Source: a bacterium (GTDB lineage: Bacteria > Cyanobacteriota > Vampirovibrionia > Gastranaerophilales > JBAXKC01). Taken from it: DNA of 18,290 nt. The translations under genes were made by a program, and so were the position numbers. Below the pieces are notes generated by a model. That model worked only from the letters and a program-made list of their open reading frames with translations, had not been told where the DNA came from and searched no databases. Below are positions 1 to 18,290 of this stretch, piece by piece; the first letter of the stretch is position 1, and each line of letters starts with the position of its first letter. The stretch covers positions 1-18,290 of the forward strand of contig JBAXKC010000045.1 of assembly GCA_037137535.1 (NCBI GenBank), given 5' to 3'.

Positions 1-78
1 GCGGTGATTGGTCTTTTTCACTAGTTTTACTTTTGTTAGCAAACAATCTTTTTCCGCTATTCATTACGTCTATTTATA
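1..78 (-). ncRNA. Putative bridge RNA, 5' part with target-binding loop
   Basis: Nested stems GCGG/CCGC (57-54 with 4-1) and GATTG/CAATC (48-44 with 10-6) enclose an internal loop. The loop holds TTTGCTAAC (43-35, identical to the left target flank 102-94) and AAAAAG (18-13, complement of the right flank CTTTTT). Confidence 0.7.
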
Positions 79-94
79 TATTTTATTGTACGAG
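1..94 (-). mobile_element. IS110-family left end (non-coding, bridge-RNA-bearing), truncated by the window edge
   Basis: Minus strand reads ...TTTGCTAA-CT-cg-TACAAT, with a CT core at 94-93 and a -10 hexamer at 90-85. The flanking repeat copy stops exactly at this core. It pairs logically with the right end at 18104-18124. Confidence 0.75.
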
Positions 95-236
95 TTAGCA
101 AAAACAACAACATAGCAGCTCTTAACCGCTACTGGCTTCTTTTCATACTCTTTGAGCGGTTTTGCACAAAATAATTTTTGAGAAAAGAAGCAAACCGCTT
201 ATGGGCAGTGGGCTTAGTTGAAGCTTTTGCCAAAAG
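93..236 (+). repeat. Dispersed multi-hairpin repeat, segment 1 (3' half only)
   Basis: Contains AAAAACAAC...CTTAACCGCTACTGGCTTCTTTTC...GAGAAAAGAAGCAAACCGCT, shared with the other copies. The 5' half is replaced by the IS110 end. Confidence 0.9.
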
Positions 237-253
237 AATTCATATGATTTAAG

Positions 254-1465
254 CTAAACCTTATAAATAACATTACCATCCTGATTGTATAAATTATTAA
301 TACTATCTTTCATTTTTTGGTCTGGAAAATTCTTGTATTCCTCTTTATACATATTGAAATAAAGCCCTTTTTTATCGGCAAGGTCAAAGATATACTTGTT
401 TCTTACGTCAATTATAAACTTTTTGCCGTCCTCAGCATTGTATTCCAGCCATGAATGATCTTTATTTATCATTAAAGTAGTATTTATACCGCTTAATTGT
501 GCCGTTGCCTTTAAAAACATTGACTGCACCAGACAAGTAGCGACCGAAGCAGGTAAACCCATACTACCTGTTGAAAATTCACCTATATCAACAATACGGC
601 ACGGATATTTTTTTTGCTTGTAGTCTGAATAATATATAAATTTGCCATTCATAATCAAGCCGTTTTCATTGTGTTTTGAGGTATGAATAATCCCGTTTTT
701 CTCATATTCATTAGTAATAAGTTTTGGCTTAAAAAAGTCTGTTTCTGTTTCAAGCAAAGCCTTTGCAATGTTTATTGAAGCTGATTTATCTGTATTTTTT
801 AAGTTTTTGTTTAACTTTTTTGACGCTTCAACCAAAACCTTATCATCTTCAAGATTTATTCTTACTTTGGAGAGAAATTCCTTCCCTATATCATCGTTTT
901 CGGTTAATTTCATCACCCCGCTTGGATAAAACGGCTTGTAGGTAAAAACAAACCCCTTCTCAAAGTCGTCAGACAGCTTAGCAACAGCTTTCCTTCCATC
1001 AAGAACGGCGAGCCTGTTATAATACAGATCGGACATCTGTTTAATCGGTGCATCGGCATTGATGGCATTTGCCTGCTGTAATAACTGCAAACGGATTGAA
1101 GTTATTCTTGCTTTGTTTGAATTATGAATCTGCACCTTCTTCGCTCTGTCTTCACCAGTTGTATTATCTTTTGCTATGTATTTATAGCGTTTATTGTTCA
1201 TTTCCGCCTTATCAACATAACTCAAACCCTTATTTGCAAGCCTATTTTTGGTTTTATAGTCAGTTTTTTCTTGTGAGGCTTTATTTAGATAAGTTTCAGC
1301 CTTATCCAAAGCTTGACCAACTTCCTTTTCTATAATATTTAACTTTGTCTCAACCGTTACATCTTTATCTTCAAGTATATTTAAAGTTTCTCTGTTTTTC
1401 TCGATAATTGCCTTTGAAGAAGCAGACTGCTTAAATGAAATATAAGGATTAGTTAATAAATTCAT
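254..1465 (-). CDS. Hypothetical protein with helical N-terminus and C-terminal transglutaminase-like (Cys-His-Asp) domain
   Basis: 403 aa ORF. The motif ATCLVQSMFLK...GI...DHSWLEY...FIIDV has the spacing of a transglutaminase-like triad. Confidence 0.6.
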   Translation of the reverse strand: MNLLTNPYISFKQSASSKAIIEKNRETLNILEDKDVTVETKLNIIEKEVGQALDKAETYLNKASQEKTDYKTKNRLANKGLSYVDKAEMNNKRYKYIAKDNTTGEDRAKKVQIHNSNKARITSIRLQLLQQANAINADAPIKQMSDLYYNRLAVLDGRKAVAKLSDDFEKGFVFTYKPFYPSGVMKLTENDDIGKEFLSKVRINLEDDKVLVEASKKLNKNLKNTDKSASINIAKALLETETDFFKPKLITNEYEKNGIIHTSKHNENGLIMNGKFIYYSDYKQKKYPCRIVDIGEFSTGSMGLPASVATCLVQSMFLKATAQLSGINTTLMINKDHSWLEYNAEDGKKFIIDVRNKYIFDLADKKGLYFNMYKEEYKNFPDQKMKDSINNLYNQDGNVIYKV

Positions 1466-1611: not shown

Positions 1612-2718
1612 ATGATTGAAACGACAAATCTTTCTAAAATAAATTTAACCTCCCAAAAACAGATAAAAAAGCCTTCTACTATAGATAACAAAAGAAATCT
1701 TTCATCTAAACTGAATTATAAGAAGCAATTAAAAAAAGACGAGTATTCTCTTTCTCAGAAACAGGCTCAAAAAACAGGTATAACTTTAATAATTTTAGGA
1801 GCACTCTTTCTAGCCGCAGTAGGAACAGCCCTATATTTTAAAAAGGCTAAAGACGCCATAATGAAAATATTTAGAGGCGGTAGGGCTGCAATTTCTTGGG
1901 AAAAAAGAGTGCAAACAACACTTCAAAAGTCATCTAATACAGCTATATCTGAATTTGCATCAAAAATAAAACTTACACGCTCTGGAAAAATTGAAGTCGA
2001 AGATAAAAAGAAATTACTGCAACTTATTAAGCAGGAATATATAAAAAACAACCTTACTCGTGATGAATCAAACGAGTTATGTAAATTGGTACATCCGCCA
2101 ATAGCAAGAAAAACAACTGTAACTAAAACCATTAACTACGAGCCATACAATAATTATTACCATAATGACTACTACGATGGATATAATAGGGGACGACTTG
2201 AAGAACAAGTTGATAATATGCGTTATGACTGGATGGAAAATGAACACAGATCGCAAGAAGTTCAACCAGCAAAACAAACGATTTTATTGAATAATAATGA
2301 GCTTTGGAATGAAACGAATAAGACCGCAGAAAATACATTAGGATACGATGCTCCGCATGTTAACGAAGCTCTTAATGATATTGATTCTTCAAGCACTCAA
2401 TTAGATGATTTCCTTAATGAAAGGGAAGATTATGATAATTTTGATGATATATTCAGCAGTTCAGAGGAATCAAGGGATTTTAACTTTGAGAACTCAAGCA
2501 GTTACGAATCTGACAACTTTTCGAACGATTCAAATTACCCAAACGATTATGATTATAACAATTATTCCGATAACTCATATTCTTCAGACTATAACAGTTC
2601 ATCAGATGACTCAGGCAGTTGCCTTTTTGGAAACTCAGACAACTCCGGCTCTGATAACTCTTGGCTCTCTGACAGTTCAAGTTGTTATGACAGTTATGGC
2701 TCGGATAATTCTTGGTAA
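1612..2718 (+). CDS. Hypothetical single-TM protein with basic N-half and acidic Ser/Asp/Asn/Tyr-rich tail
   Basis: 368 aa ORF with TM segment GITLIILGALFLAAVGTALYF and a low-complexity C-terminus. Confidence 0.8.
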   Translation: MIETTNLSKINLTSQKQIKKPSTIDNKRNLSSKLNYKKQLKKDEYSLSQKQAQKTGITLIILGALFLAAVGTALYFKKAKDAIMKIFRGGRAAISWEKRVQTTLQKSSNTAISEFASKIKLTRSGKIEVEDKKKLLQLIKQEYIKNNLTRDESNELCKLVHPPIARKTTVTKTINYEPYNNYYHNDYYDGYNRGRLEEQVDNMRYDWMENEHRSQEVQPAKQTILLNNNELWNETNKTAENTLGYDAPHVNEALNDIDSSSTQLDDFLNEREDYDNFDDIFSSSEESRDFNFENSSSYESDNFSNDSNYPNDYDYNNYSDNSYSSDYNSSSDDSGSCLFGNSDNSGSDNSWLSDSSSCYDSYGSDNSW

Positions 2719-2781
2719 TCAACCATTGTTAAAAAATACACAAAGATAAAAGTTAAAATAATTCATTAATTATTTGTTTTA

Positions 2782-3008
2782 ACAAGTAAATTATCTTCGT
2801 TGCTTTACGGTTTCGATGTCTGAAACCATCGACTAACTTTTTATTTTTTGAAAAATAAAAAGAGCCAGCAAAAACAAAAATATTGTTGGTTCTTTACCGC
2901 TACTGGCTTCTTTTTTTACTCTTTGAGCTTTTTTGCACAAAATAATTCTTGAGAAAAGAAGCAAACAGCTTGTGGATGGTGGAACCTTGGTTAAAGCCTT
3001 TGCGAAAA
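2782..3008 (+). repeat. Dispersed multi-hairpin repeat, copy 2
   Basis: GTAAATTATCTTCGTTGCT...CCATCGACTAACTTTTTATTTTTTGAAAAATAAAAAG...ACCGCTACTGGCTTC...GAGAAAAGAAGCAAAC. Confidence 0.92.
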
Positions 3009-3660: not shown

Positions 3661-3691
3661 AAAAGAGGAGTTTTATCAAACTCTTCTTTTT
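3661..3691. terminator. Bidirectional intrinsic terminator
   Basis: AAAAGAGGAGTTT-tatc-AAACTCTTCTTTT between convergent genes. Confidence 0.75.
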
Positions 3692-3716
3692 GTGTTTATT
3701 TAAAAAAAACAGAAAT

Positions 3717-4781
3717 TTAGGCCGCCAAATTAGCGTCAATAATATCGAGAGCCGATGAGATTCCCAGAGCCTCATCGGCTAATTTAAACTTTACGTCCCC
3801 CACAGAGCCGCCTGACAATTGCCCAAGTACAGTCATAAGTGAGTAAGCAAGGCATACTAAACCAACATGGTTCGTTAATTTATTCCAGCTTTGCATCATC
3901 AAATAATCCAGTCCCAGCTTTTGTTTAGCCTCTCGGTGAAATACCTCAACTTGCCATCTCTTTAAATATCCGACTTTCAATTCCTCGCTTGTAAGATTAA
4001 TATTGTTTGAGCCGATAAAATATTCCTCGTCTTGGTGGCAAAATCGAAGTATTTTAACCTCTCCTTTTATGTCATTAAGCTTACAAATTACACTTTCGTC
4101 ATAATTTAATCCTAATTTCTGCAATTGAGCATTATTTTTAGCAATTTGAACCTTTCTATTCCTTTTCAATCTTGTAAACCAAGTAAATCCTTTCCTATTT
4201 AGCCACTTTATGATTTTCTTTGAGGCAAAAAAACTATCGAACATTATTGTCTTTACAGGGATTTACATCAACAAAGACTTTTTAAGTAAATTTAAAAATA
4301 TATCAGTTTTTGTCTTGTATTCACGCTTGTTTACCAGTTTTGAGCTAACCCAAATGCTGAAATCAAGAGGAATATATATTTTCCCATTTGTCAGTCCTAA
4401 GCTAATAAGTTCATTTTGAGGCATGTTTTTCATCCCTCTTATGCTTTTCAATCCTTTTTTTGTTATTCTATTTTTCGCATATTGCTGCCTCAAAGGCGTT
4501 CCATCCACAACAAGATAGAAATTTAAGGCTGTAAAGATTGGCAATATTAGTTTTGCCAATTGATAGAACAGGTTTTTCCAGTTTATCTTTGATTCTAAGA
4601 AATCATAAAGCGGCCATTTGCTTCTTACTTTAGTATTTTTAGATATTCTATTCGTGCTAAAGCTTCTCTCTTGATAAATTAATCCTATTAAATATTTTCG
4701 GAATGAAATTTTATCGATATCATTTAAAACAAATGATAGAATGTAATTGAGAAATATATTTAGCCAAAATGATTGGCTCAT
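3717..4781 (-). pseudogene. DDE transposase (IS701-like) interrupted by one in-frame TAA at 4265-4263
   Basis: The two ORFs are in the same frame (...LM*IPVKTIMFDSFF...). Catalytic motifs VVDGT, MFDSFF and RWQVEVFHREAKQKLGL are present. Confidence 0.85.
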
Positions 4782-4900: not shown

Positions 4901-5122
4901 TAAGAACCCTCCATCAACCCCCAACACTAACGAGCGGCTGGCTTCTTTTCTTACTTTTTGAGTTGTTTTACATAAAATAATTTTTGAGAAAAGAAGCCAG
5001 TAGCGGTCAAAAACTGCCATGTTTTTGTTTTTACTCCCTTTTTATTTTTCAAAAAATAAAAAGGGAGTTGATGGATTTATACATCGAAACCGTAAAGCAA
5101 CGAAGATTATTTACAGTTAAAA
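4901..5122 (-). repeat. Dispersed multi-hairpin repeat, copy 3 (loop of last hairpin inverted)
   Basis: Reverse complement of copies 2 and 4, except 4952-4986, which is in plus orientation. Confidence 0.92.
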
Positions 5123-5147
5123 GAAAAAAATTTATGATTAAAACCCC

Positions 5148-6847: not shown

Positions 6848-7078
6848 GTCATGCTTAAATTGTTTCAGCATCACCTTAAATTATTGGATTTTTACCTCTG
6901 AAATTTGTTCGTTGCTATACGGTTTAAATATCTAAAGCCATCGACTCCCTTTTTATTTTTGAAAAATAAAAAGGGAGTAAAAACAAAAACATGGCAGTTC
7001 TTGACCGCTACTGGTTTCTTTTCTGACTCTTCGAGTTGTTTTACACATAATAATTTTCGAGAAAAGAAGCAAATCGCC
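6848..7078 (+). repeat. Dispersed multi-hairpin repeat, copy 4, preceded by a GTCATGCT..TTCAGCATC REP-like palindrome
   Basis: REP-like unit at 6848-6872 and core from ~6891, including hairpin ACTCCCTTTTTATTTT/AAAATAAAAAGGGAGT. Confidence 0.92.
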
Positions 7079-7283: not shown

Positions 7284-7655
7284 TTATCTGGCTTTATAGT
7301 TTTTTGCCTTTTCGTATGCTTGTTGAACCGTCGTCTGACAAGTTTTAACTTCATTCAAAAGCAACATATCATGTGCTGTTTTCCTACTGTGAACAGCCTT
7401 AGTTAAAGCCTGCAAGTTATCAACGTTGTTTGAACCGCCAAGACACAAAGGGATCTTATGATCAACCTCAATCCATTTTTGTCCTGCATAGCCGTCTCGC
7501 TTTTTAACAAAATATTTAGTCGTTTGCGATATATCCCGCTCATCTAGGGAGATACAACTTCCAAAACAATCGAAAAGAACTCTGGCATCAACTTTTAACG
7601 CAAACAGAGAGATTAAAAAAATGACAAAAACAACAAATTTAAAACTGAATTTCAT
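7284..7655 (-). CDS. HNH endonuclease with N-terminal signal peptide
   Basis: HNH motif EVDHKIPLCLGGSNNVDNLQALTKAVHSRKT and leader MKFSFKFVVFVIFLISLFALKVDA. The ATG abuts the upstream stop (TAAATG). Confidence 0.85.
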   Translation of the reverse strand: MKFSFKFVVFVIFLISLFALKVDARVLFDCFGSCISLDERDISQTTKYFVKKRDGYAGQKWIEVDHKIPLCLGGSNNVDNLQALTKAVHSRKTAHDMLLLNEVKTCQTTVQQAYEKAKNYKAR

Positions 7656-8333
7656 TTATAAATTCCATTTCTCTTTTAATTTTTTCGCAAAATAACTACT
7701 CTGTGCAAAAGTTCCAAGATTTTCAATATAGTCGATTGCCTGTTGTTTGTCAAAATCTAAAGGCGATCCTATTTCCACCTTTTTCTGTTGTTCGATATAA
7801 GTTTTTGTCTGTGCTATACGTGTTTTTTGTTCAAAAGCTCCTTTTCGTTTTATATGCTCCTCAATATTTGAAATAGTACTCTCCTTTTCGGCCTTTTTAT
7901 TTTTTCTAAAATCGGAAGAGTTATTTTTATAGTTACTATTATATTGTTTGTCTGACATTTTGACACCAAGTAGTGTGTCAGATTGACAGCTTTCAGGTGC
8001 CATATCGACAGCGCCAAAAAAAATAGCGGTAAAAGCATATAAGTTATTATTTCCGTTTTTTGACTTTACGATAAGACGTTTTTTAATCAGCTCATTTATT
8101 GCTCTGACTACTGATCGCTCACTTATATTTAAATTCTTTGCCAGATACTCCTGAGAAGGGAATACAACAGATTTCTCGGGATTATAATGAGAAGCTAGAC
8201 CTATTAATACAAGCATTTGAGTAGGATTTAATTCAAACTGTTTAGCTGCGCCTGAAATATAAAGACGTTGCGCAAGGTTAAATCCGTTGATTTTAACCTT
8301 TTTCGGTGATGGTTTATAGTTTTGTGAATACAT
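7656..8333 (-). CDS. Winged-HTH replication initiator-like protein (HTH_36-like N-terminus)
   Basis: LNPTQMLVLIGLASH...VFPSQEYLAKNLNISERSVVRAINELIKKRLI...NNNLY, with an AGAGGAG SD and an iteron-like tract just after the HTH. Confidence 0.75.
   Translation of the reverse strand: MYSQNYKPSPKKVKINGFNLAQRLYISGAAKQFELNPTQMLVLIGLASHYNPEKSVVFPSQEYLAKNLNISERSVVRAINELIKKRLIVKSKNGNNNLYAFTAIFFGAVDMAPESCQSDTLLGVKMSDKQYNSNYKNNSSDFRKNKKAEKESTISNIEEHIKRKGAFEQKTRIAQTKTYIEQQKKVEIGSPLDFDKQQAIDYIENLGTFAQSSYFAKKLKEKWNL
7953..8011. repeat. Three iteron-like repeats inside the rep-like gene (candidate origin)
   Basis: TGACATTTTGACAC (7953), TGTCAGATTGACAG (7976) and TGCCATATCGACAG (7998), spaced 23 and 22 bp, next to an AT-rich tract at ~7894-7949. 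Confidence 0.6.
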
Positions 8334-9537: not shown

Positions 9538-9550
9538 TGCTTTAAAAATC

Positions 9551-9810
9551 ATCATTGTGAGCGTAATGAACAATCGCCTATATTATTTGGCTTCACAAGT
9601 AAATTATCTTTATTGCTCAATGTTTTCGATATCTAAAGCCATCGCCTTCCTTTTTATTTTTGAAAAATAAAAAGGAATCAAAAACAAAAATATTGAAGTT
9701 CTTAACCGCTGTTTGCTTCTTTTCTTGCCCTTTAAGTTCTTCTTCACAAAATAATTTTAGAGAAAAGAAGCAAACAGCTTGTGTGTCGTGTGTCTTGGTT
9801 AAAGTTTCAC
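9551..9810 (+). repeat. Dispersed multi-hairpin repeat, copy 5 (full length with (G/A)TCATTG REP-like head)
   Basis: ATCATTGTGAGCGTAATGAACAATCGCC...TTCCTTTTTATTTTTGAAAAATAAAAAGGAA...GCTGTTTGCTTCTTTTCT...AGAAAAGAAGCAAACAGC. Confidence 0.92.
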
Positions 9811-9863
9811 AAGTAAATTTTTATCTAAACGTAAAAAATATAATTTGATAAGTGAGCTTGTTA

Positions 9864-11573: not shown

Positions 11574-12209
11574 TTAAGCGACAAGGCTAGTTGAATTTGT
11601 TCTGTATTTGTCCATTTTAACAAAACCGTGAATACTACTGTCTCCTGACTTGTATGTTTTTTCTCTTACGGCATTAGAGCTATTTCCTTCAATTGTGTGT
11701 ATAGTTCCGTCGGGATCTACGGATTTAACAAGTCCGATATGTTTACTGCCCTCTGATCCAAATACAATGCAATCACCTGGCTTTATGCCGATTGAAGTGT
11801 TTTGCTTTGCATAGCAGCCATTTTGTTGTGCCCATTCTCTGATTTGGCTTACTGCTGCTTTATAATTTTTTCCACCGTTATATCCCCAAGGGCATACGCC
11901 GCCATTGGCTTTTTCCCAGATGTGGCTTACGGTATCAGCACACCATGCTTCTTTTCTGCCTTGTGAAATTGACAGATAACTGCCATCTGCTTCATTTTTT
12001 CCTAGTAGTGACATGGCAATTTGAACGGGATTTCCGCCTGAGCCTTGAGCCCCTGCTATATTTGCTTGAGAAGGATTAAAAATTGAAGCTGTTTGAGGAG
12101 CAACATTACCGAACGGATTTGCGGCAGATGTTGCAGCGCCTGTATTTTGCAAAAGAGCCGCAGTTGTGTTGTTTAACTGTCTGGCTGTATCGTAAACAGT
12201 TGGAGCCAT
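11574..12209 (-). CDS. CHAP-domain peptidoglycan amidase/peptidase
   Basis: AWCADTVS...PGDCIVF...HIGLV...IHTIEGNSSNAV, with a low-complexity N-terminus and no Sec signal. Confidence 0.85.
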   Translation of the reverse strand: MAPTVYDTARQLNNTTAALLQNTGAATSAANPFGNVAPQTASIFNPSQANIAGAQGSGGNPVQIAMSLLGKNEADGSYLSISQGRKEAWCADTVSHIWEKANGGVCPWGYNGGKNYKAAVSQIREWAQQNGCYAKQNTSIGIKPGDCIVFGSEGSKHIGLVKSVDPDGTIHTIEGNSSNAVREKTYKSGDSSIHGFVKMDKYRTNSTSLVA

Positions 12210-12324: not shown

Positions 12325-12550
12325 GAGATTCTCAATCAATTTCAGCATGACGATTTTCGTAAAAGAAAAAACGAAAGAACCACCACTAACGAGCGGTTTG
12401 CTTCTTTTCTCGAAAATGCTATTGTGCGAAGCCACTCAAAGAGTAAGAAAAGAAGCCGATGGCTTTAGGCCTCGAAATCATTGAGCAATGAATATAATTC
12501 ACTTGTGAAGCCTCATAATATAGGCGAAGGTTCGCTACGCTTGCAATGAC
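12325..12550 (-). repeat. Dispersed multi-hairpin repeat, copy 6 (middle hairpin deleted) plus a GTCATGCTGAA REP-like unit
   Basis: On plus, AGAAAAGAAGCC joins directly to GATGGCTTTAG. Head GTCATTGCAAGCGTAGCGAA on minus from 12550, REP-like unit at 12325-12351. Confidence 0.88.
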
Positions 12551-12564
12551 AGTTTTTTCTTTTA

Positions 12565-14799: not shown

Positions 14800-14834
14800 T
14801 TATTCTAAATCAAGTTTAGACTGATATTTTATGA

Positions 14835-15086
14835 GAATTCAACTAAGAACCGCTCCAAATGAGCGGTTTGCTTCTTTTCTCAAAAATGCTTTTGTGCAAA
14901 ACGCCTCAACGAGTAAGAAAAGAATCAAGTGGCTGTTAAGAACTTCAATGTTTTGTTTTTGCTTATTTTTTATTTTTCGAAAAATAAAAAGTAAGTCGAT
15001 GGCTTCAAACATTGAAATCATTAAGCAACGAAGAAAATTTACAGGTAAAAACTCATAATCAAGGCGATTGCTACACTCGCAAAGAC
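14835..15086 (-). repeat. Dispersed multi-hairpin repeat, copy 7 (full length)
   Basis: Reverse complement of the consensus, with head GTCTTTGCGAGTGTAGCAATCGCC. Confidence 0.92.
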
Positions 15087-17942: not shown

Positions 17943-18105
17943 GTCATGCTGAAATTGTTTAAGCATCTCATAAAAACTATCATTGCGAGCATAGCGAAAC
18001 AATCCAAAGCATTTTTAGGTTTTTACATTTAGATTATCTTTGTTGCCGTATGATTTCGATGTCTAAAGTCATCGACTAACTTTTTATTTTTCGAAAAATA
18101 AAAAG
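17943..18105 (+). repeat. REP-like unit plus dispersed repeat segment 8 (5' half only)
   Basis: GTCATGCTGAAATTGTTTAAGCATC, then ATCATTGCGAGCATAGCGAAACAATC...CATCGACTAACTTTTTATTTTTCGAAAAATAAAAAG, cut at the AG core. Confidence 0.9.
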
Positions 18106-18290
18106 ATTATGTTATGGAAGTCAAATACTTTTTAGAATAATTGGAATCAAAAGGTGTTCTGTTTCTTAAAATAGCAGCGGCAGTTGCAAGCATTTTTCTC
18201 ATAACAGCGATAAGTGCTACTTTTTTAGCTTTACCTGATTCCGTAACAACTTTTGTGTAAACCTTAATTTTGAGAGATTAGAGAAATTTT
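18104..18290 (-). mobile_element. IS110-family right end, truncated by the window edge
   Basis: Minus strand ends TTGACTTCCATAACATAATCT, an outward -35 followed by a CT core, overlapping the transposase 3' end. Confidence 0.85.
18107..18277 (-). pseudogene. IS110-family transposase C-terminal fragment (not in the ORF track)
   Basis: Manual translation SLKIKVYTKVVTESGKAKKVALIAVMRKMLATAAAILRNRTPFDSNYSKKYLTSIT* matches the IS110 C-terminal GK.KKVAL.A.MRK motif. An in-frame TAA lies at 18280-18278. Confidence 0.8.

Follow-up and report, generated by a model that had tools for sequence, protein, structure and literature searches.

The window, by which we mean the whole 18,290-nt stretch of contig JBAXKC010000045.1 analysed here, appears to begin and to end inside the same kind of mobile element. 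We are fairly confident that its two edges are the ends of one IS110-family species of the IS110 group, transcribed from the minus strand and inserted at a CT core in the palindromic hairpin stem of a modular repeat of ~240 bp. The window most likely represents a contig whose assembly broke off within the IS on either side. A preliminary description of the same DNA had proposed a single IS species for both edges, and the evidence in favor of this proposal, drawn from the sequence, is strong if indirect: the edges carry consecutive halves of one repeat unit, CT stands on both sides of the split, and the left end contains a 9-mer equal to the flank. The coordinates of the individual features are collected in Table 1.

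Table 1. Features at the two edges of the window, copies of the interrupted repeat, and repeat loci of another genome. Positions are those of the window unless a contig is named.
Feature	Position	Strand	Basis or remark
Predicted IS110-family transposase C-terminus, last 56 codons	18277-18110	-	NCBIfam match, phmmer relatives, tail alignment
Transposase terminal stop TAA	18109-18107	-	translation
Edge codons with in-frame TAA (18280-18278)	18278..18290	-	homology undetectable in either frame
Core CT, right-end junction	18105-18104	-	repeat similarity ends at 18105/18106
-35-like hexamer TTGACT, within the last transposase codons	18124-18119	-	sequence and junction scan
Core CT, left-end junction	94-93	-	repeat similarity resumes at 95
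-10-like hexamer TACAAT, 2 nt inside the left end	90-85	-	sequence and junction scan
Probable IS left end, non-coding as far as visible	1..92	-	breaks the repeat at the point where the right end does
Candidate left target guide TTTGCTAAC	35..43	-	identical to 8-nt flank and first core base
Candidate right target guide AAAAAG	13..18	-	complement of core and 4 T of the right-end flank
Repeat copy R1	2763-3008	+	2 nt longer at the insertion point
Repeat copy R2	4916-5137	-	
Repeat copy R3	6888-7077	+	
Repeat copy R4	9544-9812	+	
Repeat copy R5	12354-12557	-	middle module missing
Repeat copy R6	14829-15070	-	
Repeat copy R7, split by the IS	18019-18105 and 95-211	+	
R7, 5' half (target)	18019-18105	+	85% identical to the copy at 2776-2863; alignment
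R7, 3' half (target)	95-211	+	direct and inverted matches to other copies; alignment
Repeat loci L006-L032 of an alphaproteobacterial MAG	contigs CBDDHH010000003.1 and CBDDHH010000004.1, locus positions about 3684-4219		

At the right edge, the minus-strand frame from 18289 translates to KFL*SLKIKVYTKVVTESGKAKKVALIAVMRKMLATAAAILRNRTPFDSNYSKKYLTSIT*. The preliminary description had recognized in it the C-terminus of an unannotated IS110 transposase, and had read the letters at both edges correctly throughout. A profile search with the peptide agrees with this identification: residues 13-42 match NCBIfam NF033542 (IS110 family RNA-guided transposase) at the last 30 profile positions (314-343 of 343), with an E-value of 3e-4 and 19.9 bits, a score that lies far under the whole-protein cut-off of 140 because the peptide is only a fragment. 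A Pfam scan of the 56-residue peptide gave no match. With phmmer, 33 proteins were found at E<=1e-3 among 1.84 billion representatives, the best of them at 63% identity. Pfam was run on the 11 of these 33 that are at least 230 aa long, leaving out the 22 shorter proteins; Transposase_20 is present in ten, DEDD_Tnp_IS110 is additionally present in nine, and the remaining one is a low-complexity protein. The peptide also aligns with the extreme C-termini of seven full-length IS110 transposases, and a profile built from these seven relatives gives the right-edge frame 66.4 bits. This profile was made from the peptide's own phmmer matches, whose IS110 identity is confirmed separately by their other domains. 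Among plasmids, tblastn with the peptide returned 646 records, all below 60% identity, and nine of the 15 matches listed carry the annotation "IS110 family transposase". Taken as sequence evidence, these data support the assignment of the peptide to the C-terminus of an IS110-family transposase. The part of the transposase within the window lies wholly downstream of Transposase_20 (PF02371), the domain with the conserved serine, and both catalytic domains would be located beyond the edge.

The coding sequence of this transposase runs almost to the end of the element. On the minus strand, the terminal TAA is followed by T (18106) and then by the core CT (18105-18104), which places the stop 1 nt from the core. 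The right end is therefore almost wholly coding, with ~1 nt of non-coding DNA plus the core (~3 nt past the stop), and the distance from TTGACT to CT is 13 nt.

The frame is interrupted by a second TAA close to the edge, which the preliminary description had interpreted as the mark of a defective copy or of an erroneous edge sequence. The TAA is indeed present at 18280-18278, but a frameshift would explain the edge equally well. The alignment with the seven-relative profile starts only at residue 9, 3' of the internal TAA, and the neighboring frame (from 18288) is open up to the edge, with N and F at conserved positions. Frames 2 and 3 of the 15 edge codons score -1.3 and -0.6 bits, respectively. 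A nonsense change, a 1-nt frameshift and an error at the contig end are all possible origins of the edge TAA, and the frameshift fits as well as the nonsense change does. Recoding of TAA was also considered and was rejected, since seven of the seven window genes that we checked terminate with TAA, which makes it an ordinary stop in this organism.

The exact positions of the two ends come from the DNA that they interrupt. The window contains seven copies of the ~240-bp modular repeat, six besides the copy that is split by the IS (R7). Full copies carry three hairpins each, and the middle one is a perfect AT-rich palindrome; in R7, the 5' half ends with the perfect 26-nt palindrome CTTTTTATTTTTCGAAAAATAAAAAG at 18080-18105. 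Upon alignment with the six other copies, the right-edge piece ends exactly where the left-edge piece takes over, at a single point of the repeat, with AG (CT on the minus strand) on both sides of the split and nothing else gained or lost. Judged from this alignment, the same core dinucleotide is found at both junctions, without a longer target duplication. Because the junctions are fixed by the six-copy alignment, the IS ends can be placed at the CT that the preliminary description had named, and on independent grounds. Past either edge, then, lies DNA that breaks into this repeat family at an identical site. Four additional bases lengthen the stem of the middle hairpin and covary from copy to copy (TCCC/GGGA, TTCC/GGAA and CTTA/TAAG), with compensatory changes in 4 of 40 predicted pairs, and in R7 the corresponding CTAA (18076-18079) is complementary to TTAG (95-98). 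The repeat gave no match in Rfam or among plasmids and phages, and no match to the 26-nt palindrome was obtained in a full-text literature search; in its layout, we take the repeat to resemble BOX- or REP-like elements. A 75-aa ORF (14831-15058, plus strand) lies wholly within copy R6 and is probably no gene.

We infer the pairing of the two ends, because a full-length copy was not found in our searches, and this pairing rests on the split repeat, because two unrelated elements at the same nucleotide, both leaving CT, would be far less likely. Protein word-index searches with the peptide, directed at longer and at near-length proteins, found none. Neither blastn of both edges nor megablast of the whole window gave a match among plasmids and phages. 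A scan of genome contigs with the peptide returned at least 36 loci, the best among the matches listed being 55-65% identical over 30-47 residues. At the DNA level, none of these loci resembles the edges or the repeat more closely than chance would allow, and no full-length or close copy was found among the genome-contig matches listed. Two of the relatives, L001 and L004, share 70% identity over 1,312 nt; the ends of the IS in relatives were sought by comparing these two with each other and within an alphaproteobacterial MAG, and could be fixed in neither case. This MAG contains more than 20 copies of a ~480-540-bp repeat in which an IS110-like gene is represented by its last ~30 codons alone, and its copies share only the ~480-540-bp piece around the match. 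They may be truncated or miniature IS110 derivatives.

The same picture would arise if both edges came from one and the same IS copy, in which case the window would be a circular, plasmid-like replicon of ~19-20 kb whose assembly failed inside the IS, and not a piece of chromosome flanked by two copies. We regard this variant in topology as quite possible, if tentative. It would fit that the two flanks together make up one repeat unit whose stem extensions, CTAA and TTAG, are complementary, but a site-guided IS in two repeat units gives an identical picture, and the complementarity is expected for two copies as well, because the guide selects TTAG and the hairpin covaries. A replication-initiator-like protein is encoded at 7656-8333, and the cumulative GC skew reaches its lowest value around 8 kb and its highest at either end of the window, both of which are compatible with a small replicon and do not prove one; on the other hand, iterons were not found near the rep-like gene, no plasmid or phage record matches the window, and the MCP, CheW and PilZ genes that it carries are commoner on chromosomes. 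The divergent orientation of the genes is compatible with a small replicon and is no proof of one.

With regard to the other contents of the window, the protein at 7656-8333 matches the Pfam families HTH_36, DnaD_N and RP-C as well as PHROG replication initiation families, and its gene adjoins that of a small HNH endonuclease (together 7284-8333, minus strand). A CHAP-domain, endolysin-like protein is encoded at 11574-12209 (minus strand). The presence of the rep-like, HNH and CHAP genes beside MCP, CheW and PilZ genes suggests plasmid- or prophage-like DNA. At 3717-4781 (minus strand), two adjacent ORFs match IS701/IS4-type DDE transposases, one of 175 aa in their C-terminal part and one of 172 aa in their N-terminal part, and by its sequence this pair looks like a second, broken insertion sequence. 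Two long ORFs, 254-1465 (minus strand, 403 aa) and 1612-2718 (plus strand, 368 aa), gave no match to Pfam, NCBIfam or PHROGs.

Turning to the left edge as the left end of the IS110-family element, the minus strand reads CT (94-93), CG (92-91) and TACAAT (90-85), and the window would cover the first ~78 nt of a putative bridge RNA of ~180 nt, the donor-binding loop of which would lie beyond the edge. For comparison, the bridge RNA of IS621 is ~177 nt long, starts at the junction promoter and has guides of 9 nt and 4 nt, according to excerpts of Durrant 2024 (PMC11208160). Read from 43 down to 35, TTTGCTAAC is identical to the 8 nt of flank that adjoin the left end plus the first core base; the left target guide of IS621 is described there as standing in the same sense relation to its left flank and core (PMC11208160). 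A match of at least 9 nt to the 16-nt flank-plus-core occurred in 0.045% of 20,000 shuffles of the left end and in 2.8% of random window segments, the latter figure being inflated by the other repeat copies. The base that follows TTTGCTAAC is A and the second core base is T, such that the guide reads CA against the core CT. The 9-mer spans the four variable stem bases of the repeat's middle hairpin. As a right target guide, AAAAAG is uninformative: it occurs twice in the left end, and 33% of the shuffles contain it too.

In a predicted fold of positions 80 to 1, two stems (GCGG/CCGC and GAUUG/CAAUC) enclose a 33-nt loop, in which TTTGCTAAC lies toward the 5' side and one AAAAAG toward the 3' side. 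The folding of the left end is not significantly better than that of shuffles (z -1.0), 32 of 200 of which fold as well or better. Rfam, searched at the gathering score and at E<=5, held no family for the left end or the repeat, all of the 12 weak matches being sub-gathering, and the left end by itself matched no database entry. From an ATG at 64-62, a frame of 21 codons stays open up to the edge of the window, a stretch that is unremarkable at this length, and a very short non-coding left end (at least 30 nt) is possible because this frame is open to the edge.

If the left-end 9-mer is a guide, the other copies of the repeat show what it would have to distinguish. Four other sites in the window differ from the 26-nt rebuilt site at no more than 6 positions (4, 2, 4 and 4 mismatches), and all four are unoccupied. 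Each of them has 1-3 mismatches in the nine flank bases that precede the core, or an altered core, and R1, the fifth copy compared, differs in length at the insertion point. Since all four empty sites are mismatched and R1 has a different length, the sole occupied copy is the one that matches the guide.

The preliminary description had further pointed out that the right and left ends, when fused via their shared CT, give TTGACT-17-TACAAT and that the resulting promoter points into the putative bridge RNA. Both parts of this observation hold: the fused sequence has 10 of 12 matches to the consensus, and its orientation is toward the left end. Among 20,000 random junctions of window sequence, 153 (0.77%) reach at least 10/12 and 8 reach 11, when random pairs of window positions are joined and the promoter is required to span the joint with a spacer of 16-18. 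Read together with its present flank, the left end shows no promoter that reaches the scan threshold of 9/12. The arrangement is what would be expected for the family, since excerpts of Durrant 2024 (PMC11208160) describe a promoter that is rebuilt across the core of the joined RE-LE in the circular IS110 form; that a circle junction assembles a promoter, as the preliminary description had stated for IS110 elements, is in this respect published. Without its -35 box, IS621 no longer recombined unless it was given the RNA in trans (Durrant 2024, PMC11208160, as excerpted). In silico, then, a sigma70-type promoter is rebuilt across the core when the two ends of the window are joined. Together with its present flank, the right-end -35 can also be read as TTGACT-18-TATTTT (18124-18095, minus strand; 9/12), which points out of the IS, toward cheW and antisense to it, and is no better than what shuffles provide.

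It is conceivable that the ends are paired correctly and that the junction hexamers are no promoter, the RNA and the transposase being expressed by read-through or from another internal promoter. The activity of the junction promoter is a prediction, hexamer matches are common in DNA as AT-rich as that of the window (GC 0.31-0.35), and weak bridge RNA expression has been reported from integrated IS621 loci (Hiraizumi 2026, as excerpted). Because of the latter observation, the junction promoter would not be the sole source of expression. Nevertheless, with a 10/12 match, an optimal 17-nt spacer and a position across the core as described for IS621 and IS492 in excerpts of the literature, we find it quite unlikely that the hexamers have no promoter function. 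The least likely of the alternatives, and one to which we give hardly any credence, is that the right edge is a dead 3' IS110 remnant and the left edge is unrelated to it, the promoter being a chance juxtaposition: homology does fade and a TAA does appear within the last 25 nt of the window, the left end is without a database match of its own and 0.77% of random junctions score equally, but this explanation needs two unrelated elements at the same nucleotide of the repeat, both leaving CT, and has to accommodate that the flank's 9-mer is present in the left end and that the -10 sits exactly at the position described for the family in excerpted sources.

The pairing of both edges as ends of one IS110-family species is also in keeping with what is known of the family. 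Comparison of the two ends of the element revealed no terminal inverted repeats (the best end-to-end inverted identity is 15/40, and inverted exact matches reach 7 nt at most). The right end is short, the left end, of which at least 30 nt lie within the window, would be the long one, and the features visible in the window place it, on sequence grounds, within the IS110 family. According to excerpts of Durrant 2024 (PMC11208160), IS621 of E. coli, a member of the IS110 group, likewise has a CT core at both junctions, has no terminal inverted repeats and inserts into a repeated palindromic element (PMC11208160). Its right end contributes the -35 and its left end the -10 of a promoter rebuilt across the core in the circle, an arrangement that the joined ends of the window element would share, and its left end encodes the guide RNA, which is putatively the case here as well, where the RNA would be seen only in part (PMC11208160). 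The two elements differ in several respects: the protein tail of the window element is distant, all plasmid records being below 60% identity; its right end is ~1 nt plus the core, whereas that of IS621 is ~107 bp, as calculated from a 298-bp RE-LE minus a 191-bp LE in the excerpted text (PMC11208160); and its target is an AT-rich palindrome in a ~240-bp modular repeat rather than an E. coli REP.

ISPpu10 of P. putida resembles the window element in that it inserts into multiple copies of a conserved intergenic sequence with a stem-loop by the recognized bases, as described in an excerpted source (10.64898/2026.03.19.712850). In the same excerpt the ISPpu10 stem-loop is a GC-rich 5' extension (10.64898/2026.03.19.712850), whereas the hairpin in the window is AT-rich and has the core within its stem, on the side of the right target. 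IS492 of Pseudoalteromonas atlantica forms a circle with a promoter across the junction, as mentioned in excerpts of Durrant 2024 (PMC11208160), a behavior that the window element would share. The transposase family is also shared with the IS1111 group, in the members of which the left ends are short, the right ends are long and the subterminal inverted repeats are long as well (Durrant 2024, PMC11208160, as excerpted). Membership of the IS1111 group was considered and rejected, given a stop 1 nt from the core, a right end of ~3 nt and no inverted repeats.

With its CT core, short right end, junction promoter, guide-like flank match and palindromic repeat target, the element may well work in the manner of IS621, ISPpu10 and IS492. 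By analogy with IS621 and IS492, excision would join both ends through a single CT into a circle, and only in this circle would the -35 and the -10 stand 17 nt apart. The junction promoter would then drive transcription of the non-coding bridge RNA from the left end and, further downstream, of the transposase, which presupposes an interior that joins the two ends seen here. In the bridge RNA, a target loop with TTTGCTAAC would read the flank, including the four stem bases that vary between copies of the repeat, and this reading would direct reinsertion into matching repeat copies.

A junction promoter, a CT core and the targeting of palindromic repeats have already been published for IS110 elements and are ordinary for the family, and our knowledge of IS110 elements is unchanged by the present case. 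A more speculative idea, which we think rather unlikely, is that the repeat serves as an address system for the IS and that one IS copy closes the window into a small circular replicon. The address part of this idea derives from the fact that the variable stem bases (TTAG here; GGGA, GGAA and TAAG elsewhere) are those read by the candidate guide. Were the repeat such an address system, an IS with one guide would fit only a subset of the copies, and different variants of the guide could divide up the repeat family among themselves. In more practical terms, a contig that breaks inside an IS110-family element at both ends is of relevance for assembly and annotation. The element would add to the family an AT-rich and very compact example, in which the last codons of the transposase gene contain both the -35 and the donor bases. 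It would also offer a natural control of specificity, in that the guide-like 9-mer agrees with the one occupied copy of the repeat, whereas every other site compared is empty and falls short of a perfect target.
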